Source: a phage
Reading direction: 5' to 3' (one strand)
Length of the DNA stretch: 64,000 nucleotides
Sequence record: PZ212788.1
Below, one piece after another: positions 7,901-44,117 of the stretch (position 1 is its first letter; each line of letters starts with the position of its first letter). Below the pieces are notes generated by a model. It was given only the letters and a program-made list of their open reading frames with translations. It had not been told where the DNA came from and did not search any database. The translations under genes and the position numbers were made by a program.

Positions 7901-8713
7901 CCGTACGCTGGTACACTGCTTGTTTACAAAAACACAGCTAACAGACCTCAAGGTTGTGTGCAGGAATATATCACCTATTTTGGTGACAGATATACTCGTG
8001 CTGGTAACTACGTTGGCGATGTCTTTACTTGGGAAGAATGGAGACACGATGCTGGTAAGGGCATCCAGTTAAGACCTAATTACACTTTTGGTGAAACCAG
8101 TAATCAACTGGAAATTCATATCGGTGCTAATGGTCTTCCCTCCAACGCAGATGGCTTACCTAAGGATGATGCTGTACTCCATTATTGGGGTAACGGCAGC
8201 ACAGGGGATCGTCCAAACGTGTTAGAGTTTAAGGTTCGTGACGAGTCTCAAGCAAATTGGGTATGGCATTGCGGTACCTTGCCGGATAAATCAAGATATC
8301 TTTCTGTAAACGGTGCTGTGAATTGCACATCTGTCAATCAGAGTTCTGACAGAGACCTGAAAGATAACATAGCTGTTATTCCTGATGCGTTAGAAGCTAT
8401 CCGGAAGATGAAGGGTTATACTTACACTCTTAAAGAGAACGGTATGCCTTATGCAGGTGTTATAGCACAAGAGGTGCTTGAAGCGCTGCCGGAAGCAGTT
8501 AGCTCTTTCGTGCAAAGAAAGGAAATCCCAAACCCTGATCAGGATGGAACTCCTTTAGTAACAGAGGAAAGATTCTACAGCGTGGATTACGCAGCCGTAA
8601 CAGGCTTGCTTGTCCAGGTTTGCAGGGAACAGGACGATAAAATAACCGCCCTTGAGGAGCAGGTTAAAAAATTGACAGAGGTTGTTACTGGGTTGCAAGA
8701 GAAACTTAAGTAA
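4901..8713 (+). CDS. long tail fibre with C-terminal intramolecular chaperone (peptidase S74-like) domain
   Basis: 1270 aa; C-terminus ...DLKDNIAVIPDALEAIRKMKGYTYTLKENGMPYAGVIAQEVLEALPEAV... followed by a coiled coil matches the endosialidase/T5 pb1-type autoproteolytic chaperone; N-terminal anchor shared with 1598 ORF. Confidence 0.7.
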   Translation: MADIKVVRIESLPATTAVTEDDYLVVQQPDLTRRVKIGDVVHVDGTVSHVISFKEGGKLNGPMDFAYFEEEDLYLRWKGEFPHTVPALSSPYSDGGITDAAWMVYTDPSLREELESTIGASMIMTAEGQSVQDVMDVTVQTANDAKALAQRVDFGTVHTVGDVIHLVNFVGPAVIEEGRTTNYPSVAAGERFLNGVVSRRDTTTVDGIFRGATTGAMYTIAVTNGVATTKRIALRDEFKRLEANNPTRTVIRAGDDLNTAGYLQLDATGRWGMWNQQTASWQPLAIEQGGTGARDAAGVRINIGAFYKQRAALEPNFNINNLTGNQDGVYYQPMTAYATEANGYPAGSGAGHLIVWQNNANGGTGCRQEYYPFSNVDVWYLRTYQANTNQWTAWQPMVRPRNDDTFRSHIGLGKNNSPAFGHLYLAQYSGDVKSASGILHGDKYNTDGVLEHGYRIYSEVRNDNKAWLTIHLHKGAKGSETHRYLGFREDGVLDCPKYMQVGDLNGQMANWGLGEWIRSSGAERGFWGSKKAAKMVIWDGGMDEQGEGTLEWGVYNNRKAKWEPLPIACGGTSARTVGDAQAQFRIPLAAGARPYVNLPRTAAMQDGKYYPIIVRTDPNFAATIGTDLTIVTRSSSGGDPMNCATLQCHYRTGGWTDRGDSFQGVINFYQNEKAILGCVSPTRGKQEYVAFYVEARAFPVTVYAGATVIEVSTREADWQVGNVTGNQDGVKFCAPLESADLSLAIKGDDVTNTRPLVEFKGTSGFYTGGGTMWHYLGTPERYAVMSKMNMPKVELWADGIDYICPGSQTTRKALFSNAGFQAASEGTEDLINNTFTSKCGNGARLQGQAEFRSTPEAGQVIVRDVVGTAHKFYNFNKDGTFFPPGGYVCQTGADWNNQFGNTNPSKIMAGNVNGPEGSMVVGGLSVAFSGNYAFQMAGRLDQLYTRSIEGGNHRAWNKVIQHRGQGLGTEDLNAYDGSREGFYHQGSNADALVTDRHYPAPYAGTLLVYKNTANRPQGCVQEYITYFGDRYTRAGNYVGDVFTWEEWRHDAGKGIQLRPNYTFGETSNQLEIHIGANGLPSNADGLPKDDAVLHYWGNGSTGDRPNVLEFKVRDESQANWVWHCGTLPDKSRYLSVNGAVNCTSVNQSSDRDLKDNIAVIPDALEAIRKMKGYTYTLKENGMPYAGVIAQEVLEALPEAVSSFVQRKEIPNPDQDGTPLVTEERFYSVDYAAVTGLLVQVCREQDDKITALEEQVKKLTEVVTGLQEKLK

Positions 8714-8720
8714 CTGTTTT

Positions 8721-8750
8721 GCCCTCGCTTCGGCGGGGGCTTTTTGTTTG
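8721..8750 (+). terminator. rho-independent terminator (GC stem with TTCG loop plus T-run)
   Basis: gccctcgc-ttcg-gcgggggc followed by tttttgtttg immediately after the fibre stop codon. Confidence 0.7.
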
Positions 8751-8752
8751 TA

Positions 8753-8781
8753 TTGCGTATTAACTCAAAATCTGGTAAAAT
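8753..8781 (+). promoter_or_regulatory. sigma70-like promoter with extended -10 (TTGCGT-17-TGgTAAAAT)
   Basis: -35 TTGCGT 8753-8758, 17 bp spacer, TGg TAAAAT 8773-8781; same TGnTAAAATA motif recurs at 14284, 20615 and 56290. Confidence 0.55.
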
Positions 8782-8812
8782 AGCTATCATGATTGTTTAA
8801 CCTGGAGGCACA

Positions 8813-9403
8813 ATGTTTTTATGGGAAAGGCCTAGATACCTTCCAGATATTAGATTAGAGCTGCTGGCAGATATTGTTACGTTTAAAAGTCCGTTTACAG
8901 GTAAAACGCAAAAAGTAACCTATGCCACACCTAACTGGAAAGGCACTTTGACGGTCTCCAATATCAGCGAATCCCAGTTGCTAGAGCTTAAGAGCTTTGT
9001 TGATCAGGTGTATAAAGATGGGAACATCTTTCTCATTAAAACTTACGGTCACTCAGTAACAGCTAATGAGCCAATCGCCCTTGGGCCTACTGGTAACGAC
9101 GATTTTTTGAAGACGGTCGGGTGGGAGCCAAACAGAGACATAGCCAGAGCTGGAGATAAAATATCTGTCAATGATGAATTGAAAGTGGTAACAGCTCCAG
9201 TGCGTAGTGATGGTGTTGGGTCTGCTGTTATAGGCATATCTCCAAGACTTAGAAAACCTATTGCCGCAGGGGACACCATGAAGATAATAACTCAATCTCC
9301 GAAGGGTAGGTTTCATATCAGAGATATTTATAAAATTAAGCAAAAAGTCGATGCTATGCAAAAAGGTGATAATATAGTTATCAACTTCTTTGAGGATTTC
9401 TAA
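8813..9403 (+). CDS. minor tail protein (possibly lambda gpM-like)
   Basis: 196 aa; FLW...TLTVS...LLELKSF segments loosely resemble lambda gpM; first gene after promoter, upstream of K-like and J-like genes. Confidence 0.3.
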   Translation: MFLWERPRYLPDIRLELLADIVTFKSPFTGKTQKVTYATPNWKGTLTVSNISESQLLELKSFVDQVYKDGNIFLIKTYGHSVTANEPIALGPTGNDDFLKTVGWEPNRDIARAGDKISVNDELKVVTAPVRSDGVGSAVIGISPRLRKPIAAGDTMKIITQSPKGRFHIRDIYKIKQKVDAMQKGDNIVINFFEDF

Positions 9404-9404
9404 G

Positions 9405-9956
9405 ATGATCAGAGCGCCATTAGATAATTTATTTCTTGAAAAGCTGGAGCTTGATGGTGTTGAGATCTTAATTGCTGCAAAGCTGGAGCTACCGACAGGA
9501 ACTGTCAGGGTGTGCTCAGGCACTGGTGTTGTAGTAATTGAGGGGCAACATTTTATAGGGATAGGTGGATCAGCAACATTGACCGCTGTGTCTGAGAAAG
9601 ATGCCACCAACTTCGGATCTGTGGTAGCAACATTGAACGGGTTTGATCCTAAGTATGTAGGTGATCTGCTGAAGACGGAGTATTCTGGTTGTCGTGCCAC
9701 GTTGTACATTACCGCTATGGAGAATGGTTTGCCTGTTACAACTAATGGCTTGTTTGACGGACTTATAACAGATATGGCTATTCAGACAGGCGAGAATAGT
9801 GCTTTGTCCATATCCATCTCTTCCATCTTCAACAGCTGGTTAAGAGGTTTTCCTTATCGGTACACGGAGGAAAGCCACAGCTCAAGAAACGATAACGACA
9901 GATTTTTTAAATATGTGGATCAGGTGGCGAGCCGCCCGATCATTTGGGAGGTTTAA
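9405..9956 (+). CDS. minor tail protein (tail-tip assembly position, L-like by context)
   Basis: Start trimmed to ATG 9405 directly after upstream stop; positional analogue only, no sequence signature recognised. Confidence 0.3.
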   Translation: MIRAPLDNLFLEKLELDGVEILIAAKLELPTGTVRVCSGTGVVVIEGQHFIGIGGSATLTAVSEKDATNFGSVVATLNGFDPKYVGDLLKTEYSGCRATLYITAMENGLPVTTNGLFDGLITDMAIQTGENSALSISISSIFNSWLRGFPYRYTEESHSSRNDNDRFFKYVDQVASRPIIWEV

Positions 9957-10381
9957 TGAGCACACACCCTCGTTTAGTGGATTGGCAAGAAAGATTGTGG
10001 AAAGTGTTTGACGAAGAGGCCACCATACCTTTTGAATGGGGATTCCACGATTGTTGCACCTTTGCAGCTAAGTGTGTTGATGCCCAATACGGAACAGATT
10101 TTCTTTCTAACTTTGAAGGAACGTATAAAACAGAGTTGGAAAGCAAGAGATGGTGCATGCTTCATTTCAAAACCACACATCTGCCCACTATTTTTGATTT
10201 CTTTATGACTCGACTGGACACTCCTAAACAGGTTCAGCGTGGTGATATTGTTATTTTCGAAGGCCTGAACGGGCTCACCGCTGGTGTGTTCTGGAACAAC
10301 CAGATTTGGGCGAAAGGGGATAAAGGGGTCTTTATGTTCGACATGAAAGATTCTATCGTTGTTGATGTCTGGAGGTATTAA
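9956..10381 (+). CDS. NlpC/P60-like tail assembly protein (lambda gpK C-terminal domain-like)
   Basis: FHDCCTF (catalytic Cys context) and downstream GDIVIFEG resemble NlpC/P60 motifs; start trimmed to ATG 9956 with GGGAGG RBS; TAATG coupling to J-like gene. Confidence 0.5.
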   Translation: MSTHPRLVDWQERLWKVFDEEATIPFEWGFHDCCTFAAKCVDAQYGTDFLSNFEGTYKTELESKRWCMLHFKTTHLPTIFDFFMTRLDTPKQVQRGDIVIFEGLNGLTAGVFWNNQIWAKGDKGVFMFDMKDSIVVDVWRY

Positions 10382-32202: not shown

Positions 32203-32448
32203 CTATAGCTCCACTAGCAAAGTGCTTTCAAAGTGCCGTTCATGCAAACCGTTGTAAGGGACCACTTCTACAACGCCATCACGGACATATGGGGCCATCA
32301 TGGTGGTATAATCTCCAAACGGGTTGGTATTGTCACTAACCACAACCACCTTCTGCCCTTCCTTGGCAGAGTGCCAAATAGATCTGCACTTCATCAGGTG
32401 TTCGAGAGCTCCAGGTAAAATTTTGTTACGTTCTTTACGGGTCTTCAT
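32203..32448 (-). CDS. hypothetical protein
   Basis: 81 aa ORF with AAGGAG RBS. Confidence 0.4.
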   Translation of the reverse strand: MKTRKERNKILPGALEHLMKCRSIWHSAKEGQKVVVVSDNTNPFGDYTTMMAPYVRDGVVEVVPYNGLHERHFESTLLVEL

Positions 32449-32894
32449 AACAGATATAGCTCCTTATGAAAGTGGTCTTTTAATTTCTCACTGAGAAACT
32501 TCTTGATACCTTCCTCTAAAGTGTTTTCGATGTAGTCCAGCTTAACTGCTTCGATGGACATATCATAGATCGCCAGCTCTAAGCTGTCAAGTCCCATCAT
32601 AGCATGAACCATAAGATTTTCATCTTCAGATACATTCAGGGGGCTTCCTATAACATCTGGAGGCAGAATAGTTTCCCAATTATTCTGGGCGGTAGTTCTC
32701 CCTCCCTCTACTTTACGGCGCAGTTCGAATGTGTTCTTAGTGTAGAACACTTCATAAGAAACGATACGACTGTCGCTCTCGTAATAAACGAAGTTCAGGT
32801 AGGAGCCTAGCCGCAGTCGGCAAACTTCTACCCCAAACCATTGTTTCTTATAAGAATTCAGGCTAATGCTGTCGCATTCACGTTTGCTCAACAC
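32445..32894 (-). CDS. hypothetical protein
   Basis: 149 aa ORF, GTG start with AAGGAGAGA RBS. Confidence 0.4.
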   Translation of the reverse strand: MLSKRECDSISLNSYKKQWFGVEVCRLRLGSYLNFVYYESDSRIVSYEVFYTKNTFELRRKVEGGRTTAQNNWETILPPDVIGSPLNVSEDENLMVHAMMGLDSLELAIYDMSIEAVKLDYIENTLEEGIKKFLSEKLKDHFHKELYLL

Positions 32895-33148: not shown

Positions 33149-33412
33149 TCAGAAACCCTCTAAAAAGCTCTTGTAGAAAACAATCTCAGTATCCACACCA
33201 GTCACAATCTTGTCGTTCCTGATTTCATCGGTAAGATAGGTGTCAAAACGCAGAACCTGTGTGGTGTTGTCACACATCCACTCAGCTGTGACCATTGCGA
33301 AAATCTTAGCATCTTCATTATCTGGTGTGAATGTTACCACCTCACCGCACTTAAACTTTTCGATAGGCTGAGTGTTAGCTTTCGGTTCTGCGATAGTGAT
33401 TTTTGTGGTCAT
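33149..33412 (-). CDS. hypothetical protein
   Basis: 87 aa ORF, coupled to upstream gene. Confidence 0.4.
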   Translation of the reverse strand: MTTKITIAEPKANTQPIEKFKCGEVVTFTPDNEDAKIFAMVTAEWMCDNTTQVLRFDTYLTDEIRNDKIVTGVDTEIVFYKSFLEGF

Positions 33413-33669
33413 TACTCTTCCTCCATAGTTTCACCAAATACTTCGATACGAGCATCGAGCTCGGTTGCTTTCAGCTCCCCAACAAAATCTTTTAGTTCTT
33501 TCTCGTCCAGATCGTAAGCCCACACACAAGAAGAACATGCAGATTTCACAATCAGTAGAGTAGATACACGACCTGACTCTGTGATCATGCTCACAATGGT
33601 CCCCACAGGGAACGTGTTGATAGCTTTTTTAACTGGGCGTTCAGCTTTAATTACTACCTCTGTTGCCAT
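33412..33669 (-). CDS. hypothetical protein
   Basis: Start trimmed to second ATG (MATEVV...) with better RBS spacing. Confidence 0.35.
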   Translation of the reverse strand: MATEVVIKAERPVKKAINTFPVGTIVSMITESGRVSTLLIVKSACSSCVWAYDLDEKELKDFVGELKATELDARIEVFGETMEEE

Positions 33670-33684
33670 AAATAACATCCTCTC

Positions 33685-35145
33685 TTACTTAGCGTACTCG
33701 ATTAATTCCACAGTTTTACCAAAGCTAGGGATATAATTTTTATTATACCCTTCGGTGAGAACCCATAAAGTATCGTACTTTTTCCACCTGTTGTCAACAG
33801 CCTTTTGTTCAAAGTTATGCTCAAAGTATAGGTCGGTCAGGACGATGACATCTTTTGCATTTGGTATGTTGGCATCCAGATACTCGAACACGCAAGCAGC
33901 TGTTGTGCCCCATGTTGAGTGGACCTCATAGTTGATCATCTCGTCTATGTTGCCGCGAGTATATACTTTAACCTCTCCGACTTCAGTTGACCAACAGAAC
34001 ATTGTAACCTTAAACTCTTTATACAGGTTGCACAATCCGGTGATTTCATTGAACATTTTCTTTAAAGTTCTTTGAGAGATCGAGCCAGAAACGTCTAAAG
34101 CCACCACAATATCTATAGTGTTTTCCGGATTACGACCCGGAACAATAACGTGTTGGTTCTTGTTTATAGCTCCAACTTTTCGCATTGTGCTGGTCAAAGA
34201 CCCAGATCGGCGACCAGGTTTTCTGTAGGTCAGTTCGGCCTTTCGTTTAGACAACATGCGTTGCTTGATGATGTCTATATAATTGATTACAGGCTTACCT
34301 CTGTTCTTGACAAACTCACGAACCGCCTCAGGGCAACGACCTCCGGAAGCTTGCATTGCTGCCTCCAGCATGTCACCAGAGTCCTGCATGGCCTGATCTT
34401 TATCAGATTGGCTGATTACAGGTTGTGGCTGATCATACCCCATAGCCTTTCCAAGATCATCACTAGTGCCACCGTTCCCACTCATGTGATCATCGGTTTG
34501 TCGCTTATCACCTTGAAAGTTCTCACCTTTACCGTTCTTACTTTTACCGTTATTTTGATCTCTTTGCTTATCAAGAACTGCATAAACGTTCTCAGCAATC
34601 CATCCATGAAACTTCATGTCGCAGTAGCAGCTGGCTAAGAAGCCAAAAGGCTTACCTTTTACGAACGTAGTGCTTTTCCCTTTTGGGAAGAAAACACAAG
34701 GAGGCTTGCTAAAGTCAACCACAAGGCCTGTGTTGATGACGTGATCACAAGCAATGTTGAACAGTTCCGGTTCAAAGCTTTTACCACGGACCAGGTGATC
34801 ACAGATAATATGCCCCACCTCATGTGACAGAAGAAAGGCCACCTCTTTCACAGATTTGGGGGAATAGAAAACCTCAGCCATCTCAAACTGCTCGTCAGTT
34901 AGAGAAGCCTTAAGAATAGCCTTGCGTTCATCAGCCAACCCCATAATGAACTCAGGACTGTAATAGATGCGTTTATGGTCGGTTGCCATGGTGGAGCACC
35001 ATGTGTGGTTTTCTACGAACTGCAACCCTGACAGTAGTGTGCCATAAAACGGCAGCTTTTCAAGGAGATACATACGTGCAGCCTGCAACATTCTCAGGGC
35101 ATCATCTTTCTGTGAGGCAATGATTTCTGAACTTCTGCTATCCAT
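33685..35145 (-). CDS. metallopeptidase-like (HExxH) plus von Willebrand factor A domain protein
   Basis: HEVGHIICDH zincin-type motif in N-terminal half; VVALDVSGSIS (MIDAS DxSxS) in C-terminal half; start trimmed to ATG 35145. Confidence 0.6.
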   Translation of the reverse strand: MDSRSSEIIASQKDDALRMLQAARMYLLEKLPFYGTLLSGLQFVENHTWCSTMATDHKRIYYSPEFIMGLADERKAILKASLTDEQFEMAEVFYSPKSVKEVAFLLSHEVGHIICDHLVRGKSFEPELFNIACDHVINTGLVVDFSKPPCVFFPKGKSTTFVKGKPFGFLASCYCDMKFHGWIAENVYAVLDKQRDQNNGKSKNGKGENFQGDKRQTDDHMSGNGGTSDDLGKAMGYDQPQPVISQSDKDQAMQDSGDMLEAAMQASGGRCPEAVREFVKNRGKPVINYIDIIKQRMLSKRKAELTYRKPGRRSGSLTSTMRKVGAINKNQHVIVPGRNPENTIDIVVALDVSGSISQRTLKKMFNEITGLCNLYKEFKVTMFCWSTEVGEVKVYTRGNIDEMINYEVHSTWGTTAACVFEYLDANIPNAKDVIVLTDLYFEHNFEQKAVDNRWKKYDTLWVLTEGYNKNYIPSFGKTVELIEYAK

Positions 35146-35178
35146 TAAAACTCCAGAAGGGGACAATGGCCCCTGTCA

Positions 35179-36156
35179 TTATTTAACGTGTTTGAAAATA
35201 CCTGCCAACTCGGTCATTGTCATGCGGGTGGTCTTCATAAGATCTGTCATAGCTTTCTCCATAATTGGAGATACTACCATAAAGTTTCCTTTAGTGAAAC
35301 CTTTATTCCAGTCGGTCACCAACAGTGGTTTAAGTCCAGCTCCGAGACGTTCACCAGTTAAAGCACAGCATTTGCGAATATACGAACTCTTAAATTGGCT
35401 GAACGACAGATCAACTTTCATACCTGCATCGTAGAACGTTTGACAATAGAAAGTGTAAGCCTTAGCAATCTCAACATCATCAGGCAGTGCAGGAACTTCT
35501 TCTGTAATATCCTCTTCGACCTCCTGAGGATCTTTTTCCTCTTCAGAGTTCTGTTCTTCAATTTCTTCTGTCACAGTCTCGTTTACGATGTCTGAAATGT
35601 GTTTGTTGGCTGCACGATCAGCCATGAAATTTTTAAAGTCCTGCATTGGTGACATATCTTCCTCCTCTTCGTCAAATAGTGCTAGTTTATCTTCTTCTGT
35701 CCCGTATTGCAAGATGAAATCTTCAAAAGTATAATCACCTTTCAATTTCTCCATACGCTCTTCGCTCAGGTGGAGCATCATCTGCTGGACAATTTTTCGA
35801 TCAGTTTTATCTTTTATCAAGATTGCAGTCTTTTTATCTACCAGACAGTCCTTCAGAGCGTTGCACCTCAATCCCACCACACAACAATTATCAATTGAGT
35901 AAGGACCTTCATCATCTATCCGCTCCAGAGATGGATAGAAAGGATTTCCCAGCCCGTTTTCATCTGTGTGCATGTCAAAAGGTATAAGGGTGTAATCGCA
36001 CACTCCATCTCCTAAAAGTTTTTTACCAAATAGGAGGTATTCTTCCCATGACAGGTTGAACTCTATATCCCGTTTCCGTGCATTATTCTGTTTGCGTCTA
36101 TATTTTTTGAGCAGGCGCTCTAACTCTTCTGGTGTATAATATTTTTCAAGATTCAT
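35179..36156 (-). CDS. HNH-like nuclease/DNA-binding domain protein
   Basis: N-terminal region ...SLERIDDEGPYSIDNCCVVGLRCNALK resembles HNH-type loops; acidic central linker; track start is TTG without RBS, trimmed to ATG 36156. Confidence 0.35.
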   Translation of the reverse strand: MNLEKYYTPEELERLLKKYRRKQNNARKRDIEFNLSWEEYLLFGKKLLGDGVCDYTLIPFDMHTDENGLGNPFYPSLERIDDEGPYSIDNCCVVGLRCNALKDCLVDKKTAILIKDKTDRKIVQQMMLHLSEERMEKLKGDYTFEDFILQYGTEEDKLALFDEEEEDMSPMQDFKNFMADRAANKHISDIVNETVTEEIEEQNSEEEKDPQEVEEDITEEVPALPDDVEIAKAYTFYCQTFYDAGMKVDLSFSQFKSSYIRKCCALTGERLGAGLKPLLVTDWNKGFTKGNFMVVSPIMEKAMTDLMKTTRMTMTELAGIFKHVK

Positions 36157-36187
36157 GAGTTGTCTCTTGTGCTCTGTAGGTGAAGAA

Positions 36188-36216
36188 ATCTTATCAAGTG
36201 CCTCAACAGATGTCAA
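36188..36216 (-). promoter_or_regulatory. leftward early promoter (TTGACA-17-TAAGAT on minus strand)
   Basis: Reverse complement of 36211-36216 is TTGACA; 17 bp spacer; TAAGAT; about 25 nt upstream of trimmed start 36156. Confidence 0.5.
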
Positions 36217-36229
36217 CCTCAAAAACGTG

Positions 36230-36258
36230 TTGACTTTACCCTAAATCCACGATATAGT
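36230..36258 (+). promoter_or_regulatory. rightward early promoter (TTGACT-17-TATAGT)
   Basis: -35 36230-36235, spacer 17, -10 36253-36258; 40 bp upstream of ATG 36299 with AGGAG RBS. Confidence 0.6.
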
Positions 36259-36298
36259 GCACCCATTCGAAAGAAAACGAACACAGGAGTACTTAATC

Positions 36299-37198
36299 AT
36301 GGCAAATCTTAACAGCTTTAGCACTCGGTGGAAACAAGATATCACAACCAATCTCTCAGCAGGCGATATCCTTTCTGCAATTTACGAGGCTTTGGATGAT
36401 AAAGCTACTTCAAAAGCGGTTTGTACCAACCCACTAATTCCTGTAGTGATGAAGGTTATTGAGCGTAGATTGGTATCCGGGTCTGATAAGTGGACATATT
36501 TAGATAATGAAGGACACACCTATTCCAATGGGTACGTCGATATAAAAGTAGAATACGCGGTATCATACCGCCGGAGCGGTTCTGTAACTTTCAACTTCTC
36601 TGGAGGTTTTCGATCTCTGGCTACCTCACCTTTTGTTTCCTCAGAGGAGAAGTATGAGCTTCCATTTCTTTGGATGATGGCTAACGCGACAGGAAAAACC
36701 CCCGTTAGCATCCGAGTAAAATACAACTACAACGGATCTAGTAAGATCTATGCCGAGAGTGTCTCAGCAAGTTTTTATTTTGTGATGGGGGATGGAATCC
36801 TCAAACATATAAAGATGTGCGATATGCATGATGTTATAAATGAAGTGACTGATAAGAATGTTCTGGTGAAGGATCTCAACAATTTTTATACACCCGGAGA
36901 CTATTACGTCAGCCGTCCACTGTGCATCTTTAATGCCGCACACCCTCTAGGTGAGTATTTGATCGCCAATAGCGATATTGCCAATAACCGCTTCGAGGTA
37001 GCAAGAGTACAGAATGAGGTATTGACATCTTGCAAGAGCGGTGATAAGTTTACCGAAGAAGAGATGGGTGTTTTAGAAATGATGGGATATAAGTGTAGCC
37101 TTTGGGTAGATGAGGTGTTTAATGATTGCATCTATGGACAGGATATTTACCCATTAAAGAAGTATACTGATTCCAGTTTAATTTACGCGGAGATTTGA
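36299..37198 (+). CDS. hypothetical early protein
   Basis: Start trimmed to ATG 36299 (AGGAG RBS); 300 aa, no motif recognised. Confidence 0.5.
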   Translation: MANLNSFSTRWKQDITTNLSAGDILSAIYEALDDKATSKAVCTNPLIPVVMKVIERRLVSGSDKWTYLDNEGHTYSNGYVDIKVEYAVSYRRSGSVTFNFSGGFRSLATSPFVSSEEKYELPFLWMMANATGKTPVSIRVKYNYNGSSKIYAESVSASFYFVMGDGILKHIKMCDMHDVINEVTDKNVLVKDLNNFYTPGDYYVSRPLCIFNAAHPLGEYLIANSDIANNRFEVARVQNEVLTSCKSGDKFTEEEMGVLEMMGYKCSLWVDEVFNDCIYGQDIYPLKKYTDSSLIYAEI

Positions 37199-37200
37199 CT

Positions 37201-37473
37201 ATGATGAAGTCATGTGGTAGTGTATATTATGTTGGTGAGAATGTTCAGGCAGATAGTGTGTGGAAATCCATTAAGTCCACCACCGATGATGCCTTTCTGA
37301 GCGGGTTATGCTTTCCCAGCCCAGGGGACACTCTCCCTTACCCTGGAGATTTTGTTGTCAACAAGATGGACGGTTATACCGTGTGCCTGATGGTTGAAAA
37401 AATCTTTTTAGACACTAGACACAATCACCGTCTTGTGTTAAAATTTCAAGAATGTAAAATGACAATTTCCTAA
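37201..37473 (+). CDS. hypothetical protein
   Basis: Start trimmed to ATG 37201. Confidence 0.4.
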   Translation: MMKSCGSVYYVGENVQADSVWKSIKSTTDDAFLSGLCFPSPGDTLPYPGDFVVNKMDGYTVCLMVEKIFLDTRHNHRLVLKFQECKMTIS

Positions 37474-37486
37474 GGAGACCTTGCCG

Positions 37487-37843
37487 ATGTCTAAAGTTAC
37501 TTATCGTGCAGCTATTTACTGCAATGAACACCCAATCTATAATGATGGTCACTGCCTTTTTAAAGAAAATCAATTGGGCTGTATTGTCCTACCTGATGAA
37601 GGGAAAGGTTATCTGATTGCATTGACAGGGTTCGAGCCTGAAGCTCTGGAAGCCAATCTGGACTATCTGGTAGAAGAGGGTGCTGCAGACCTGGTTTCCA
37701 ATGGCCTCGCCATAAGCCTTGACGAGGTGGAGCGCTTCATGGGCAATTACCGTGTAGTGCGTGAGTTTACTATCGAGGTGGAAACTCCAGAGTGGGGTAG
37801 CACTGAAACTAACGCCGAAGAAAAAGAAGAGGAGGCAGAATAA
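37487..37843 (+). CDS. hypothetical protein with acidic C-terminus
   Basis: Start trimmed to ATG 37487 (AAGGAG RBS). Confidence 0.45.
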   Translation: MSKVTYRAAIYCNEHPIYNDGHCLFKENQLGCIVLPDEGKGYLIALTGFEPEALEANLDYLVEEGAADLVSNGLAISLDEVERFMGNYRVVREFTIEVETPEWGSTETNAEEKEEEAE

Positions 37844-38100
37844 TGAAAGTGCAGATCTTGACTAATGCCGAGAAGATGTTTATTGAAGATACACCTTTTG
37901 AAGCTGGTGAGCTACAGTTCGTTTATTTTGTTGACTTAGATAAGGTGTTCCCTGCACTGAATCTGGGTCTGGATGAAGTCCCTCATAAAGTTTTGTGCCA
38001 AGTTGTTCGTGCCTTAGCGGCAGATGGGGATTTCCACACCCTTGAAGATATCCAGACCTACGGGTATCTTGAACTGCAACGAGAAGAAGAGGTGGACTGA
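37843..38100 (+). CDS. hypothetical protein
   Basis: 85 aa, translationally coupled. Confidence 0.4.
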   Translation: MKVQILTNAEKMFIEDTPFEAGELQFVYFVDLDKVFPALNLGLDEVPHKVLCQVVRALAADGDFHTLEDIQTYGYLELQREEEVD

Positions 38101-38102
38101 TA

Positions 38103-38483
38103 ATGGCCCGGTGGAAGACAACAGTTGACCTTCATGATCAGTGGTTAGGACGCATCGCTGAAGACGGGAAACTAGTAGAGTGGGACAATAAGCATGTTAG
38201 CGAGTTGGCAAGCATTGTGGCTGGCAAGTTACGCTCCAAGTTCCCTGAACAACTGGATCCTGATAATTCAAAGTTCGATCCTGAGTTGGAGGATGTTGTA
38301 TACTACTTCGATACCGTGGATGACTACGATGCGTGGCTTGCAGCACGGGAGCTTTACCCACAAGGCTCTGCTATGCGCCAGATGGAAGAAGATTATCCTC
38401 CGTGTGAGCAATTCAATAGCGCAATGACTTGCCTCTATGATTGGGCAGATAAGAACCTTGTCTGGATTCGGACTGCATTTTAG
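38103..38483 (+). CDS. hypothetical protein
   Basis: 126 aa ORF. Confidence 0.4.
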   Translation: MARWKTTVDLHDQWLGRIAEDGKLVEWDNKHVSELASIVAGKLRSKFPEQLDPDNSKFDPELEDVVYYFDTVDDYDAWLAARELYPQGSAMRQMEEDYPPCEQFNSAMTCLYDWADKNLVWIRTAF

Positions 38484-38527
38484 TGGGCAGGAATGGCGGC
38501 AAGGATGCCGCTTAAGGAGTAGTAGAG

Positions 38528-38797
38528 ATGTTATACCAGCAATATGAACTTCGTGCAGAAAAAGAGTTAAATTTTGACAAAGATATTCACAGATATTATT
38601 ATGGGAAAGTTAGAGGGCAAGCAAGAAAGTGTACTCCAACACTCTTTTATGCCAGCAGACGACTAGCGCCAGAAGAGGCAACAGCAGAAAGGGTTGCGTA
38701 CAACTGGAGAGTCACGTATGATATTGACAGATTCGATGTGATATCTGTTTTGGAAAACTTTGAAAACACTTACACACAAGTAGAGGACTTTTACTAA
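38528..38797 (+). CDS. hypothetical protein
   Basis: 89 aa ORF with GGAG RBS. Confidence 0.4.
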   Translation: MLYQQYELRAEKELNFDKDIHRYYYGKVRGQARKCTPTLFYASRRLAPEEATAERVAYNWRVTYDIDRFDVISVLENFENTYTQVEDFY

Positions 38798-39981
38798 TGT
38801 CAAGAAACGTATTCGAAAGTGGTCAAATCACTGTCCGTGAGTTGCCAGCTATTATTCAGTTTGCCCAACGTCATAGCCGATCTGTCCTAATTTTGGGACC
38901 AATGGGTGTGGGTAAAAGCCAGGTGATGAAGCAGATCGCTGATAATATGTTCGGTGAGCGAGATGACAACCTTGTTGACGTGCGACTGTCAGATAAAGAT
39001 CCTGCCGACTTATCTGGGCTACCTATCCCTGTAGAAGCGGATGGAACTACACGTACAGTGTTTGCAATTCCAGAATTTTGGCCTGCGGATCCTGACTGGA
39101 GCGGAATTATCTTTCTGGATGAGCTCACTCATGCAGATAACTACCTGCAAAAGGTTGCAATGCAAATTATGCTTGACCACAAGTGCGGCACCTATGCATT
39201 CCCTAAGGGTTCTGTTTTTGTGGCTGCGGGTAACCGTTCTACAGATGGTGCGGTTCTTTCGGCGCTCGAAGCCCCTCTGGCTAACCGTTTTATCATTGTA
39301 GAGGTTACAAGCAATGCAGAGGTGTTTATTGAGGACTACGCATTCCTCAACGGGGTTCACTCCTCTGTAATTGGGTATCTGAAAAGAGTTCCATCAGCTA
39401 TTGATAATTATGAGGCTATGGCTGAGATTAATTGTCCATCTTTTGCCACACCACGATCTTGGGTTGCTGCATCTGACATCTTGCACGATTTTGACAGCGG
39501 TATTATTTCTGACGCTATGGCCCGTGTTCTTCTGCAAGGTGCTATTGGTCACACTGCAGCGGTAGAGATCTGGACATACCACACCAAGAAACGCAATTTA
39601 CCGGAAATCGGTCGGATTATGGCAGGTGGCTGCAAAGAATACGTAGGTCCTAAGCAGCCAGACATTTTGTGGATTCTTGGATCTGAAGGTTGTATCGCTA
39701 TTCGTAATATGATGGAAAATGCAAGTATCTCAGACGAAGATCTTGTCAGCTGTGTGGCAAACTTCCTCGATTTCCTTTGGGAAAACTTCAAGGACGAGAA
39801 CCGAGATTTTGTATTCTCAGTCTTTATGGCGATGATGAAACCTAATGCCTTAGGAAATGCCTTGCTTATCGGTAAAGGGCGTGACAAGATTGTTGCTCAG
39901 CTGATCAAAGCATACCCAAACCTGATGAAGATTGTAAAAGAGTTTGGTGAAGAGTTTAGCGCCATTTTGGCTAAAGCTTAA
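38797..39981 (+). CDS. AAA+ ATPase, MoxR/AAA_5-like
   Basis: Walker A LILGPMGVGKSQ; Walker B IIFLDELTHA; 394 aa. Confidence 0.7.
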   Translation: MSRNVFESGQITVRELPAIIQFAQRHSRSVLILGPMGVGKSQVMKQIADNMFGERDDNLVDVRLSDKDPADLSGLPIPVEADGTTRTVFAIPEFWPADPDWSGIIFLDELTHADNYLQKVAMQIMLDHKCGTYAFPKGSVFVAAGNRSTDGAVLSALEAPLANRFIIVEVTSNAEVFIEDYAFLNGVHSSVIGYLKRVPSAIDNYEAMAEINCPSFATPRSWVAASDILHDFDSGIISDAMARVLLQGAIGHTAAVEIWTYHTKKRNLPEIGRIMAGGCKEYVGPKQPDILWILGSEGCIAIRNMMENASISDEDLVSCVANFLDFLWENFKDENRDFVFSVFMAMMKPNALGNALLIGKGRDKIVAQLIKAYPNLMKIVKEFGEEFSAILAKA

Positions 39982-39991
39982 GGGGGGTTGT

Positions 39992-40372
39992 ATGGCTAAA
40001 GTAGGTAAGCGGGGAAACTACCTGGTGGTATTGACCGAGGAGCCGGAGAAGGAGTACGAATGCAGCTCCACTTGCGTGATCGATATCCGAGAAAAAGATG
40101 TAGATGAAATCTGGTTTAAAATATTGGACGCTTGCGATAGCAGTGATTATTTCTTCATTTATGTCAACGATAAGGCTGGATTCTTCCATGACGACGGAGA
40201 GTTGCCGTATGAAATCTATGAACTTGTAGAGGCTTGCCATCGTGGAGATGCGGAGTTGTTTGGCCTACGGCTGAAAAGCGGTAAATTCTTCTATCAAGAT
40301 GAGTGCATGAATCTTCATAACTTTGTAGAGGGAACTTGCAACGATGGAGAGATTTTGGCACACTACGATTAA
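39992..40372 (+). CDS. hypothetical protein
   Basis: Start trimmed to ATG 39992 after GGGGGG RBS-like run. Confidence 0.4.
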   Translation: MAKVGKRGNYLVVLTEEPEKEYECSSTCVIDIREKDVDEIWFKILDACDSSDYFFIYVNDKAGFFHDDGELPYEIYELVEACHRGDAELFGLRLKSGKFFYQDECMNLHNFVEGTCNDGEILAHYD

Positions 40373-40383
40373 TTTCTAAGACC

Positions 40384-40411
40384 TCCCCCGCTTCGGCGGG
40401 GATTTTCTATT
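40384..40411 (+). terminator. rho-independent terminator (TTCG-loop family)
   Basis: ccccgc-ttcg-gcgggg followed by attttctattt. Confidence 0.65.
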
Positions 40412-40421
40412 TGGAGTCATT

Positions 40422-40922
40422 GTGAAAATTAAGATCTTTGCTATTATTTTGAGCGCACTTTTATCGCTGCCTGTTGTTGCAGCACCAAAACAAAAAGTAT
40501 ATCATACTTGCAAGCCCTCAGATACTAAGGAAAACATTCTGGCATGCAATATCTACAGGGAGGCTAGAGGGGATGGCACGATGGGTATGCTGGCATCAGG
40601 GTTTGCCACACTAAACAGGAAATCTCACCCCAAATACCCAGACACTATAAGAAACATTGTCTACCAACCTAACCAGTTTTCGTGGACAAACCACGGCAAA
40701 ACTTTTAAGGTGACAGAAAAAGATTCATGGGATCACGCTAAAAGTCTTGCAAAGATGCTTCTAAAGGTCTATAATAACAACCATGTTGCATACATGGCTA
40801 TGGACATAACAGGTGGAGCAACACACTACCATACAACCAAAGTACGACCGAAATGGGCAAAAAAGATGCAGAGGACAGCTCAATTCGGGAGTCATATCTA
40901 CTACAAGGAGCGCAATAAATGA
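40422..40922 (+). CDS. secreted cell-wall hydrolase, SleB/CwlJ (Hydrolase_2)-like; candidate signal-peptide endolysin
   Basis: N-terminal signal-like peptide MKIKIFAIILSALLSLPVVAAP; catalytic-domain motifs NIYREARGDG ... GFATLNR ... IVYQPNQFSW; GTG start with GGAG RBS. Confidence 0.6.
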   Translation: MKIKIFAIILSALLSLPVVAAPKQKVYHTCKPSDTKENILACNIYREARGDGTMGMLASGFATLNRKSHPKYPDTIRNIVYQPNQFSWTNHGKTFKVTEKDSWDHAKSLAKMLLKVYNNNHVAYMAMDITGGATHYHTTKVRPKWAKKMQRTAQFGSHIYYKERNK

Positions 40923-42901
40923 TTGTAAACAGTAATGAAACTAAAGCAGTACTAACCGGAAATATGGAGGTCACCAGGGGCTCAATTTCTCTGAACAAAG
41001 AGACTTTTGGGCTAATCATTAAAGGGATTTACGAAGATAAGGTGCTGGCAAGCTGCCGTGAACCAATCTTCAATGCTGTGGACTCCCATGTTGAGTCTGG
41101 ACGGGGTGATGTACCTATCATCATTCACTCTCCTACAGACCTTGAACCATACTTCTTTGTGCAGGACGTTGGATTGGGCATGTCAGAAGAGATGGTCCGC
41201 AACACTTTCATGAATCTCGGGGAGTCAACCAAGCGCAACAGCAACGCTCTGGTAGGTAATAAAGGTGTTGGTTCAAAGGCTCCGTTCAGTATGGTGGACA
41301 CTTTCGATGTTATCAGTGTGCACAATGGTGTTGAAAGCACATATCTATTGTTCTTGGATCAGGGTATCCCAAACGTTACCAAGATCCGCGAGCGAAAGAC
41401 TGAAGAGCACAACGGGGTAAAAGTTCAGTTCCATGTTAAGAAAGAGCATGTTCTGAAATATCGCACTGCTATTGCGTCATGCCTACGCTATGCAAAGTTT
41501 CCGTTTACCGTTACCGACCCTATGACCAGTAAGATGCTGGAAGGTGACAAGGTTGAGGCGCAGTATCGCTACGAGAAAGATGGTTGGAAAATGACTATCC
41601 TGAAAGGTTATACCAGCTCTGATGAGAGCCGTGTGGTGATGGGACACCAACCTTACCGCTCTAAGTTTCTGGAAACATTGACAGACTACCCTGCAATCTG
41701 TGTAGAGATCCCTATCGGGGATTGCAATATTAACCCTGGGCGCGAATGGACCATAGAGGGGCACGACGATGGTGGATTCCAGGATCGCCTGGAGGCCTTT
41801 GTCAAAGAAGGTATACGTCTTCGTGGGGCAGAAGTTGTTGCGGAATTGGAGACAGCAAAAACATCCTCAGAAGCACGTGAGATGATGAAGAACAGTGGAG
41901 TGTTCGGACACATCTTCGGCAAAAACTTTATGTGGAACCGTTGGGAAGAAACAGGGCTTGGCGACTTAGGCGATTGTGAAATTTTCGCTGGCGGCTTAAA
42001 TAAAGGCCGCATAGGCTATGCTCGTTACGGAAAGTCGGAGTTCTTACGAGGTGTATACCTTGTATTTAACGACGGAGACGGCAAATATAACCGAAATAAG
42101 TGTAACTACTTAAGCGAGATCACCGGACGCAACGTTTTCTATTGCCGTAACACGGATCTGATGGAAGAGTTTAAAGAAGCGGCACACCACCCGTTCTTTG
42201 CAGATACGGTCAAATTGTTATCAGAGCTCCCTCGCCGTCCTGTAAAGAAAGGTGAAACAAAAACTCACTATGAGCCAGGGTATTGGGTTAAAAAACTTGA
42301 GAAAGATGGTTACTTCCGTCGTGAGCGTATTACTAAGGCAGAGTTCAAGAAGATTAAGCACTGCATTCCTTATGAGGGTGATATCCAACGTGGAAGTTGT
42401 TGGCTGGGACAGCTAAGTAACATCTACCAGCAAAATTATGACCGTGTGCGTGCGGCACTCAAGATTCCTGAAGGGGAAGATCTGTACCTGGTATCAGAAT
42501 CTCGTCTGCTTTGGACTGATCCTGATTGCCAGTATGTTACAGAGAAAAATGTGGAACATTTGTTGAAAGAGGACGCCTGGAAATTCTTACTGACTCGCGC
42601 AGCAAATGAAACTTCATATGACAGCCTGTATAGACAATTAGGGAAAATTATCCCCATGCAAGATTTTGGAAATTATCGGCCACATTTCCACAAGTGGGAA
42701 GGTAACACCGCGTGGAAGCACAGTGAGCTAAATCATCGTGCCAAAATCTTAATCGCCAACCGAGTCAAGTGCGGGAAGGCCTATATTGCAAGATTGGAAA
42801 AGAAATATCCACTTTTGAAGCATGTGGGCTTGAAATATTGGGACACTCCTGCTATGATTGAATACCGTGAACTGATCGACGCAAAGAATAACACCAAATA
42901 A
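40919..42901 (+). CDS. GHKL-type ATPase domain protein (rIIA-like)
   Basis: N-box REPIFNAVDS, G1 box QDVGLGMS, G2 box GNKGVGSKA in N-terminal region of a 660 aa protein. Confidence 0.5.
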   Translation: MIVNSNETKAVLTGNMEVTRGSISLNKETFGLIIKGIYEDKVLASCREPIFNAVDSHVESGRGDVPIIIHSPTDLEPYFFVQDVGLGMSEEMVRNTFMNLGESTKRNSNALVGNKGVGSKAPFSMVDTFDVISVHNGVESTYLLFLDQGIPNVTKIRERKTEEHNGVKVQFHVKKEHVLKYRTAIASCLRYAKFPFTVTDPMTSKMLEGDKVEAQYRYEKDGWKMTILKGYTSSDESRVVMGHQPYRSKFLETLTDYPAICVEIPIGDCNINPGREWTIEGHDDGGFQDRLEAFVKEGIRLRGAEVVAELETAKTSSEAREMMKNSGVFGHIFGKNFMWNRWEETGLGDLGDCEIFAGGLNKGRIGYARYGKSEFLRGVYLVFNDGDGKYNRNKCNYLSEITGRNVFYCRNTDLMEEFKEAAHHPFFADTVKLLSELPRRPVKKGETKTHYEPGYWVKKLEKDGYFRRERITKAEFKKIKHCIPYEGDIQRGSCWLGQLSNIYQQNYDRVRAALKIPEGEDLYLVSESRLLWTDPDCQYVTEKNVEHLLKEDAWKFLLTRAANETSYDSLYRQLGKIIPMQDFGNYRPHFHKWEGNTAWKHSELNHRAKILIANRVKCGKAYIARLEKKYPLLKHVGLKYWDTPAMIEYRELIDAKNNTK

Positions 42902-42911
42902 GGAGACAGCT

Positions 42912-43493
42912 ATGATTTTCATCTACGAACATTTCAAAACTCGTAAAGAAGCACGCGACCGCCGTGCAGAACTTGAGAAGAAGGGTTTCACATGTGCTAT
43001 TGAGAAAGGTACTACAACATGGACACTGGCAGTAGGTGCCCCAGAGCTGTTTGATCCTGACCGAGACAGTGTCTGCTATACCCGTGAGGATTTTGAAACC
43101 CGCGAAGAGGCCCGTTTATTCCGCTACGGACTGGAAGACAACGGTAAGTACGCCATGATCTTAGATTCAGGTGAAGGTTCCGTTAAACGTTGGGGCGTGG
43201 TATACCCACTGTGTGTTGTTCACGGTGTGGGGGTCACTGGGGTAGCAATCAAGTCAGAAGAACCTTTAGTAGAAGTCAAAGATCCGGTGCTGGAAGTGGT
43301 GAGCAGTGTGTCTCAGCAACAGTCTCGAAGCATCGAGCCTTTGGTAGTTATTTGCGGGGAACTCCTCCAGATCACCTGCAACGAAGGCATTTTTGAAATT
43401 CGCCGCAGCGAAAGTGAGGAAGTTTACCAGAAAGTCTTCGACCATATTTCTGTTCAGGAATATGATGAGGCAATTGGTGAAATCCTTGTCTAG
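42912..43493 (+). CDS. hypothetical protein
   Basis: 193 aa ORF with AAGGAG RBS. Confidence 0.45.
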   Translation: MIFIYEHFKTRKEARDRRAELEKKGFTCAIEKGTTTWTLAVGAPELFDPDRDSVCYTREDFETREEARLFRYGLEDNGKYAMILDSGEGSVKRWGVVYPLCVVHGVGVTGVAIKSEEPLVEVKDPVLEVVSSVSQQQSRSIEPLVVICGELLQITCNEGIFEIRRSESEEVYQKVFDHISVQEYDEAIGEILV

Positions 43494-43538
43494 CTGGAAC
43501 GCAAGAATGAGTTCACCACACTTGCAGACAACCTGATC

Positions 43539-44117
43539 ATGAAAGATGGTAAGCTCTACTACTACGGTGTAGAGATGCGATCCACCATTGCAAAGAAAAT
43601 TGAGAAAGATTATGCAGACGGAACGCTGGATGACCGCTATGTGAAATTCCTCGTTCGCCTGCTACGCAATCCTTCTGCAAAATCTGTAAACATGCTCTAC
43701 GATTTTATGCAGGCCAACGATATCCAGATTGCAGAAGATGGTCGAATCATTTGCTACAAAGGGGTTCAGTTTAACGGCAGCAAGTGGGTAGATTGGCACA
43801 GTGGTAAAGTTCCACAATACCAGGGTGCTTTTGTATCCATGCCTCGTAACTTTGTAGAGGATGATCCGGAAGCTGCGTGCTCCTATGGCTTACACTGCGC
43901 CAGCAAAGAGTATGCAAAGAGCTACGGCACTGTAATGACTGTCATGGTTGACCCTGCAGATGTGGTTAGTGTGCCATACCAACACAATAGCGCCAAGTGC
44001 CGTGCATGCCGCTATGAGATTGTGGTAGCTCCGGAAGCACGCAAAGATGGAGACCCTATTGAATATGTAGTTGATCGTGACGGTAACACTATCGACATTC
44101 TTTACGAGGAGGCGTAA
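43539..44117 (+). CDS. hypothetical protein
   Basis: 192 aa ORF; weak RBS. Confidence 0.4.
   Translation: MKDGKLYYYGVEMRSTIAKKIEKDYADGTLDDRYVKFLVRLLRNPSAKSVNMLYDFMQANDIQIAEDGRIICYKGVQFNGSKWVDWHSGKVPQYQGAFVSMPRNFVEDDPEAACSYGLHCASKEYAKSYGTVMTVMVDPADVVSVPYQHNSAKCRACRYEIVVAPEARKDGDPIEYVVDRDGNTIDILYEEA

Follow-up and report, generated by a model that had tools for sequence, protein, structure and literature searches.

A MoxR-Class ATPase and a Zincin-VWA Protein Encoded on Opposite Strands of an rV5-like Phage Are Homologues of N4 gp24 and gp25

The phage sequence record PZ212788.1 was analyzed over a stretch of 64,000 nucleotides, which is referred to here as the window. The region from 33685 to 39981 (6.3 kb) carries a gene for a zincin-VWA (von Willebrand factor A) protein on the minus strand and a gene for a MoxR-class AAA+ ATPase on the plus strand. 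This region is 96-98% identical to more than 100 deposited rV5-like Escherichia phages (Vequintavirus), and the near-identical relatives include YN3, isim, and MaxTheCat/Bas57. The two genes evolve as a single unit, and their products are homologous to gp24 and gp25 of phage N4. The two proteins are likely to form, each as one half, an ATP-driven machine for the remodelling and processing of proteins, which would be the Vequintavirus counterpart of N4 gp24/gp25. A first-pass annotation of the nucleotide sequence had proposed a VWA protein fused to a zincin-like domain and a MoxR-type ATPase at these positions. Both genes are confirmed there by Pfam and by translation, with the DUF2201_N and DUF2201 domains, the HEVGH and DVSGS motifs, and the Walker motifs.

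Results

Zincin-VWA Protein

Two Pfam domains were found in the product of the minus-strand gene, in N-to-C order and both above the gathering threshold. DUF2201_N (PF13203) matches residues 88-314 with an E value of 8.4e-28 (98.2 bits against a cutoff of 23.2), and the VWA-like DUF2201 (PF09967) matches residues 346-481 with an E value of 2.8e-11 (44.1 bits against 26.4). The protein is thus a member of the two-domain family described in COG as a "predicted metal-dependent peptidase". The gene starts at the ATG at 35145, and the mechanical open reading frame (ORF) extends to a TTG at 35166. Residues 1 to ~330 constitute a helical zincin domain, and residues 344-486 a minimal VWA domain of ~140 aa. 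A disordered, low-complexity loop, which is variable, acidic, and Gly-rich, is located at residues 200-228.

The HEVGH motif is followed by the conserved residues H117, R120, N130, D134, and N138. These residues, together with H108, E109, and H112, are invariant in the partner proteins of 14 phage lineages, and H117 or D134 is a candidate for the third zinc ligand. When the family was represented by 145 sequences, one for each cluster formed at 50% identity, 135 kept the full HExxH motif and 144 kept both zinc-ligand histidines, H108 and H112. D134 and N138 are each kept in 144/145. The DxSxS motif of the metal-ion-dependent adhesion site (MIDAS) is intact in all 145 representatives, T414 in 139, and D438 in 144, and the complete DxSxS...T...D set is present on a VWA fold in the window protein. 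The MIDAS site is therefore the most constrained feature, the zincin site comes next, and a minority of lineages is without the catalytic Glu. The MIDAS and zincin catalytic sites are thus strongly constrained, and the active sites of both this protein and the ATPase are under purifying selection.

A profile of the N-terminal domain matches minimal gluzincins and M48 peptidases weakly and consistently, with MJ1213 (projannalysin) at an E value of 2.8e-4 followed by HtpX, BepA, and Ste24 (to an E value of 0.5). These are the best profile matches for the domain and are centered on the HExxH helix. The homologue in phage Callisto is matched by Pfam Peptidase_M48 with an E value of 0.0011. The similarity spans ~50 residues, and the window protein differs from the minigluzincins and M48 peptidases in the absence of membrane segments and in the fusion to a VWA domain. 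Meaningful matches in NCBIfam and PADLOC were obtained for neither the zincin-VWA protein nor the ATPase.

The first-pass annotation had noted that the VWA partner here carries a putative protease domain. This fusion is not peculiar to the present phage: it defines a very large family, with 27,502 clusters at 50% identity, was described for jumbo phages in 2021 (PMC7824862), and is annotated in near-identical genomes. PHROG 1314, which represents the zincin-VWA family, carries the label "HNH endonuclease", and this label has been copied into many GenBank records. The labels "anti-sigma factor" and "DNA repair ATPase" were also met for this gene. All three were rejected as annotation errors.

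MoxR-Class ATPase

The product of the plus-strand gene was matched to PHROG 1297 with an E value of 2e-110. All of its Pfam AAA matches are below the gathering score (AAA_5 at 16.7 bits against 22), and AAA_3 gave no match in the Pfam search. Homologues at 31-38% identity bear AAA_3, AAA_5, and bpMoxR domains, and the window ATPase is thus a divergent member of the group. The best match of the family profile in the PDB is to the AAA domains of Midasin. An AlphaFold2 (AF2) model of the ATPase was obtained with a predicted local distance difference test (pLDDT) score of 80.4, and the 14 best Foldseek matches to this model are NorQ and CbbQ2. A linked VWA partner, as expected of the MoxR class, is encoded in the same genome, 3.7 kb away in the window. 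Assignment to the MoxR class is supported by PHROG 1297, by the domain-bearing homologues, by the Midasin profile match, and by the NorQ/CbbQ2 folds. The profile searches suggested by the first-pass annotation thus recovered the DUF2201 families above threshold and AAA_5 below it, and the MoxR class stands on the other evidence.

Nine residues are invariant in 32 ATPase homologues: G37, G39, K40, and S41 of Walker A, D108 and E109 of Walker B, N146 (sensor 1), R164 (arginine finger), and R220 (sensor 2). The protein consists of an AAA+ core, a lid, and a family-specific C-terminal helical extension (~residues 270-394). Short beta elements appear in the AF2 model at residues 76-89 (pLDDT below 50) and at ~129-134. 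By their position in the model, these elements are assigned as the predicted helix-2 insert and pre-sensor-1 hairpin.

Different labels were also met for the ATPase gene, which is listed as "ribosomal protein uS19" in SSBI34 and as "putative transcription factor" in Internexus. An NCBI protein entitled "ATP-binding protein [Escherichia coli]" (P0031) is 87% identical to the window ATPase and derives from an E. coli assembly with contigs of up to 45.8 kb. This entry is probably phage DNA inside a bacterial assembly.

Co-occurrence and Co-divergence

A collection of 50,697 phage records was searched by tblastn, and the partner protein was found in 683 records and the ATPase in 821. The match counts per host genus are nearly equal (Escherichia, 214 vs 216; Pectobacterium, 26 vs 26; Achromobacter, 17 vs 17). 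Twelve phage records were sampled down the ATPase ranking, and a gene of the DUF2201 family was sought within the fetched flank. Such a gene is present in 11 of the 12; the exception is a 635-kb uncultured megaphage. In five metagenomic contexts with distant partner proteins, the partner gene is always preceded on its own strand by an ATPase gene, which is the immediate neighbor in four and lies ~4 kb upstream in the fifth; one of these five partners is without HExxH. The pairwise identities of the two proteins co-vary across 16 genomes (r = 0.90, Mantel p <= 2e-4). The correlation among pairs below ~35-45% identity is 0.61, and no relaxation was seen in the genomes with the split arrangement.

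Functional pairing of the two proteins is strongly supported by this co-occurrence and by the co-varying identities. The first-pass annotation had regarded the two genes as a functional pair, a view that an absence of co-occurrence among related phages would have contradicted, and the genes were found together in 11 of 12 phage records and in all five metagenomic contexts.

A third homologue search returned almost only proteins of TIM5-like marine cyanophages and left the taxonomic breadth unchanged. A genome scan with a single protein matched only the contig of its source metagenome-assembled genome, Saccharofermentans sp. The note "similar to S. coel. protein 1/2" in the N4 record is the only lead on a distribution in bacteria other than as phage. 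The neighbors of the pair were recorded in several genomes. It is located among Hsp20, ClpS, and ClpP genes in a contig from JGI of megaphage size (578 kb; L002, 1592-8591) and directly after Hsp20 in cyanophage S-TIM54 (L010, 4476-7108). An Hsp70-like gene and virion protein genes neighbor the pair in phage SHEFM2K.

Relation to Known Systems

Hidden Markov models built around the two window proteins were compared with the N4 locus (L019), and homology to both N4 proteins was found, with E values of 4.4e-57 for gp24 and 8.3e-52 for gp25. N4 gp24 (AAA ATPase) and gp25 (vWFA) of the N4-like phages (Schitoviridae) are direct homologues at ~23-25% identity, the partner has the identical two-domain architecture, and rIIA/rIIB lie downstream in both genomes. 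The N4 genes are adjacent, co-directional, and transcribed as middle genes by N4 RNA polymerase II, whereas the window genes are found in opposite arms behind sigma70-like promoters. Both gp24 and gp25 have been listed since 2014 among the 14 genes that make up the core of N4-like phages, and they are middle genes in N4 (PMC4193335).

The same architecture, a MoxR ATPase with a vWA protein bearing an N-terminal metallopeptidase domain, was described for jumbo phages of group 2.2 by Iyer, Anantharaman, Krishnan, Burroughs, and Aravind in 2021 as a "chaperone-cochaperone" pair (PMC7824862). A role in virion assembly with peptidolytic processing was proposed there by analogy only. Members from jumbo phages were matched directly in the present searches (the 121Q-like phage SHEFM2K, K64-1, Atu_ph07, and Callisto). 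The 2021 account deals with adjacent genes and does not extend to rV5-like phages or to the split arrangement (PMC7824862).

The MoxR AAA+ protein NorQ and the VWA protein NorD form a system for the insertion of FeB into nitric oxide reductase. The identity of NorQ-NorD and CbbQ-CbbO to the window proteins is 15-21%. NorD and CbbO lack the zincin domain and possess a VWA "finger" that is not evident in the window protein, and NorQ (~260 aa) lacks the C-terminal helical extension of ~125 aa that is found in the window ATPase. Cryo-EM structures of NorQD from 2026 show that ATP hydrolysis supplies a twisting or stretching force (PMC13036017).

The MoxR ATPase p618 and the VWA protein p892 of Acidianus two-tailed virus are implicated in tail morphogenesis, as cited in the jumbo-phage account (PMC7824862). 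ORF892 gave a weak structural match with an E value of 1.2e-4. This virus differs in being archaeal, its 892-aa VWA protein is without a zincin domain, and the system as a whole is virion-associated and acts outside the cell. Metallopeptidases are rare as effectors in the vWA-MoxR-VMAP ternary conflict systems (Kaur et al. 2020, PMC7159879). RavA-ViaA was rejected as an identity because neither RavA nor ViaA was returned by any sequence-family or fold search.

Split and Adjacent Arrangements

In contrast to the adjacent and co-directional order of N4, the two window genes occupy opposite strands and are separated by a divergent promoter region and seven genes. The genes are not co-operonic here, as the first-pass annotation had observed, and a divergent promoter-like pair separates them. 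The order of ATPase followed by partner on one strand was found in N4-like phages, Alcyoneusvirus, 121Q-like jumbo phages, Arenbergviridae, PBS1-like phages, TIM5-like cyanophages, Thermus phage phiYS40, and metagenomic contigs. Zero to four genes, some of them homing-endonuclease-like, lie between the two in these lineages. Within the Vequintavirinae this order is kept in the rightward arm of Certrevirus P7_Pc and of Salmonella phage SSBI34. The arrangement differs in the window and MaxTheCat (Vequintavirus), in BIS47 (Mydovirus), and in Av-05 (Avunavirus), where the leftward arm carries the partner and the rightward arm carries the ATPase. The split state was thus seen in one representative of each of these three genera, with near-identical relatives in Vequintavirus. 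Adjacent, co-directional genes are the rule, and the split to which the first-pass annotation drew attention is real in the window but is a derived rearrangement limited to one clade rather than a general property of the module.

A gene of 125-149 aa follows the partner gene in both arrangements among the Vequintavirinae examined. Comparison of the split-type and adjacent-type copies with hhalign gave a probability of 84.7% and an E value of 6.7e-6. The small gene is thus apparently homologous in both arrangements, and a block of partner plus small gene probably moved as a unit. The homologue in Av-05 matches the window ORF at 32445-32894 by BLASTP with an E value of 1.6e-7.

Endonuclease-like genes were observed between the ATPase and the partner in some lineages (L009, 13188-13685; L011, 7405-8901; L021, 4450-5952). 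The gene in L021 encodes 500 aa and has no Pfam match. An annotated homing endonuclease occupies this position in Certrevirus P7_Pc, and a 498-aa protein with weak matches to Vsr and restriction endonuclease-like families occupies it in Callisto. The spot between the two genes may be a hotspot for mobile genes.

Transcription and Neighboring Genes

The sign of the GC skew changes in the window near 28 kb and again near 36 kb, in agreement with a leftward gene arm (~28-36.2 kb) and a rightward arm that begins at 36.3 kb. The features of the region are collected in Table 1.

Table 1. Coordinates of genes, motifs, and candidate transcription signals in the window
Feature	Position	Strand	Basis
Gene accompanying the VWA gene, 149 aa	32445..32894	-	BLASTP, hhalign; moderate support
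Zincin-VWA protein gene, 486 aa	33685..35145	-	DUF2201_N and DUF2201; homologue of N4 gp25
MIDAS DxSxS motif DVSGS (D351, S353, S355); site completed by T414 and D438	34081..34095	-	translation
HEVGH zinc-binding/catalytic motif (H108, E109, H112)	34810..34824	-	translation
Back-to-back sigma70-like promoter pair in 142-bp intergenic region	36188..36258	both	consensus scan; candidate only
Candidate leftward promoter, TTGACA-17-TAAGAT	36216-36188	-	consensus scan
Candidate rightward promoter, TTGACT-17-TATAGT	36230-36258	+	consensus scan
Terminator-like hairpin preceding the internal promoter-like site	38460-38473	.	consensus scan
ORF of 89 aa; stop overlaps ATPase start codon (TAATG)	38528..38797	+	sequence; PHROG 13164
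Candidate internal promoter, TTGACA-17-TATTAT (11/12 consensus match)	38574-38602	+	~195 nt upstream of ATPase start, inside 89-aa ORF
MoxR-class AAA+ ATPase gene, 394 aa	38797..39981	+	PHROG 1297; homologue of N4 gp24
Walker A, GPMGVGKS	38896-38919	+	translation
Walker B, FLDE	39112-39123	+	translation
Strong intrinsic-terminator-like hairpin, 6 G-C pairs then T-run	40386..40401	+	consensus scan

A leftward TTGACA site with a spacer of 16 or 17 nt is found again at the corresponding position of Mydovirus, Avunavirus, and phage SSBI34. All the promoter-like and terminator-like signals are matches to a consensus only, and promoter-like sites are not significantly enriched in the region (21 found against 15.4 +/- 3.8 expected). 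The rightward promoter-like site is ~2.5 kb, or six genes, upstream of the ATPase gene, to which the candidate internal promoter could give a separate transcript. The overlap of stop and start codons suggests that the 89-aa ORF and the ATPase may be translationally coupled. No homologue of this ORF was found outside the genus among the loci examined, and its BLASTP matches are to the Vequintavirus locus L001 only. The hairpin at 40386-40401 would end a unit with the ATPase and a small gene at 39992-40372. Early expression of both genes, as claimed in the first-pass annotation, is plausible from gene position and promoter-like motifs, but the N4 homologues are middle genes (PMC4193335) and a separate promoter-like site may serve the ATPase.

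Several neighboring genes were also inspected. Two ORFs of 87-88 aa (33149-33412 and 33412-33678, minus strand) are located immediately 3' of the VWA gene. Two copies in MaxTheCat (Bas57) share ~40% identity with the 88-aa ORF. Three such ORFs are found in tandem in MaxTheCat against two in the window; the copy number therefore appears to be variable within the genus. The first gene of the leftward arm (35179-36156, minus strand) is annotated as an "anti-sigma factor". The N-terminal ~110 residues of its product match the PHROGs for Srd anti-sigma factor, "decoy of host sigma70", and endonuclease VII/HNH, the middle of the protein is a long acidic low-complexity segment, and Pfam returned no match. 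The first gene of the rightward arm (36299-37198, plus strand) is listed as "putative alpha 1-3 fucosyltransferase" in many records. This label has no support in Pfam, NCBIfam, or PADLOC, and the only match is to a PHROG of unknown function. The rIIA/rIIB genes (40919-44117 in the window; 6461-10001 in N4 locus L019) follow the region of the MoxR gene in both Vequintavirus and N4, with different intervening genes. This placement hints at an old early/middle gene block common to otherwise unrelated phage families.

Database Records of Related Phages

In near-identical GenBank genomes the gene at 33685-35145 is labeled "putative metallopeptidase" or "VWA-like domain containing protein", and the gene at 38797-39981 is labeled "MoxR ATPase". 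The reading of both genes in the first-pass annotation is correct and concerns an ordinary module of an already annotated kind, which as a sequence finding is expected. Sixteen records with the title "Campylobacter phage" also match the region, 15 of them with Campylobacter jejuni as the host; they include MG065647, MG065654, MG065658, MG065666, MG065674, and MG065682. Two of these records are among the best matches, at 96.9% identity to the window. Such matches suggest that the records are mislabeled or contaminating rV5-like coliphages.

Discussion

Proposed Machine

In the proposed machine, the two proteins would assemble in trans. The ATPase would form a MoxR-type hexameric ring on which the zincin-VWA partner would dock, and the disordered acidic loop of the partner is one candidate docking element. 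An acidic residue of the client would be bound by the Mg2+-dependent MIDAS site. By homology with MoxR/VWA systems, NorQ-NorD above all, the hexamer would grip the partner, and ATP hydrolysis would twist or stretch it against the client held at the MIDAS site. The fused M48/minigluzincin-like zincin would cleave the client or a neighbor exposed by remodelling. The conserved zincin on the partner suggests that remodelling is probably coupled to cleavage. The location of both genes in nonstructural arms that diverge from sigma70-like promoters makes it probable that production of the machine precedes that of the late gene products.

A remodelling and processing machine with a phage-encoded client is the best explanation as a whole and is considered moderately probable. 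The part of this reading that concerns the client is put forward tentatively: the favored candidate is a phage-encoded protein or complex in need of maturation or quality control, which would mean a role in assembly or proteostasis. A phage client is favored by the Hsp20, ClpS/ClpP, Hsp70-like, and virion gene neighbors in some lineages, by the precedent of Acidianus two-tailed virus together with the 2021 proposal for jumbo phages, and by the core-gene status of the pair across phages of unrelated hosts.

Several observations weigh against this explanation. The genes in the window and in N4 are found amid early/middle replication-linked genes (rIIA/rIIB, helicase, dCTP deaminase) and outside the structural modules. 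The catalytic Glu is substituted in 10/145 cluster representatives, and HExxH is lost in lineage P0029, where the ATPase still adjoins; proteolysis is therefore not always required. The assignment of the zincin fold depends on weak profile matches (best E value of 2.8e-4). A NorD-like finger for the ATPase pore is not evident in the predicted secondary structure of the minimal VWA domain, and the docking mode may thus differ. No experimental work on the function of any member of the phage family was found in the searchable literature.

Alternative Explanations

The same machine could act on a host protein or complex. It would then be a takeover or counter-defense device, and a conserved target in the bacterium would be remodelled and cleaved shortly after infection. 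The genes are positioned in arms that diverge from sigma70-like promoters, near the Srd-like "anti-sigma factor" gene and upstream of rIIA/rIIB, and the N4 homologues are middle rather than late genes, all of which would suit such a role. Regulated, site-specific proteases are found among zincins of the M48/M56 type, to which the profile matches here are weak. A host client is nevertheless somewhat unlikely. The pair belongs to the core set in phages of Proteobacteria, Cyanobacteria, Bacillus, and Thermus, whereas counter-defense genes are usually accessory and variable, and the target would need to be nearly universal. Among the PADLOC defense models the zincin-VWA protein has no match, and the ATPase matches only at the P-loop level, with E values above 0.002. 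A more specific proposal, which is judged unlikely, is a novel type of ATP-dependent protease in which a MoxR ring, by means of a MIDAS-bearing zincin adaptor, would seize and cut one specific protein or complex that nearly all bacteria possess. Such cleavage would occur early in infection and would be a conserved takeover step common to N4-like phages, rV5-like phages, many jumbo phages, and cyanophages.

If the HExxH motif bound a metal and cut no peptide, the pair could serve to insert a metal cofactor, in the manner of chelatases or of NorQD/CoxDE, and so to mature a phage or host metalloenzyme. This possibility is improbable. The CobS, CobT, BchD, and NorD families gave no Pfam or NCBIfam match for either protein, and identity as a chelatase (CobS/CobT) was rejected because the family-specific domains are absent. 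No CobN/BchH-like neighbor and no conserved metalloenzyme gene linked to the pair across lineages were found in the loci examined, and the N-terminal domain profile matches peptidases of the M48/minigluzincin type. The different strands and transcription units of the two genes in Vequintavirus, with an ATPase that may own a promoter-like site, could also indicate that each protein has become independent after the split and works alone or with another partner. Both genes are, however, retained with all catalytic residues in representatives of three split-type genera, and loss of either gene was not seen. Among the split-type genomes the two proteins show comparable identities (46-63% and 51-60%), in line with the overall co-divergence. 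Functional independence is very improbable.

Significance

The rV5-like pair, N4 gp24/gp25, and the jumbo-phage pair are explicitly linked here, with figures for co-occurrence and co-divergence and with conservation statistics for both active sites. Also new is the recognition that the split is derived, is confined to one clade, and is accompanied by a small gene. The pair is present in four genera and one unclassified member of the Vequintavirinae sampled, in many jumbo phages, and in marine cyanophages, and it is among the most widely conserved phage gene pairs without a known function. E. coli K-12 is a host for members of Vequintavirus, among them Bas57 and other BASEL phages. The separate transcription units in these phages make each gene separately accessible to mutation or knock-down, which is a convenient experimental entry. 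Identification of the client would supply a missing piece of the basic life cycle for many phages, therapeutic as well as environmental, and would give the first MoxR/VWA machine coupled to a protease.

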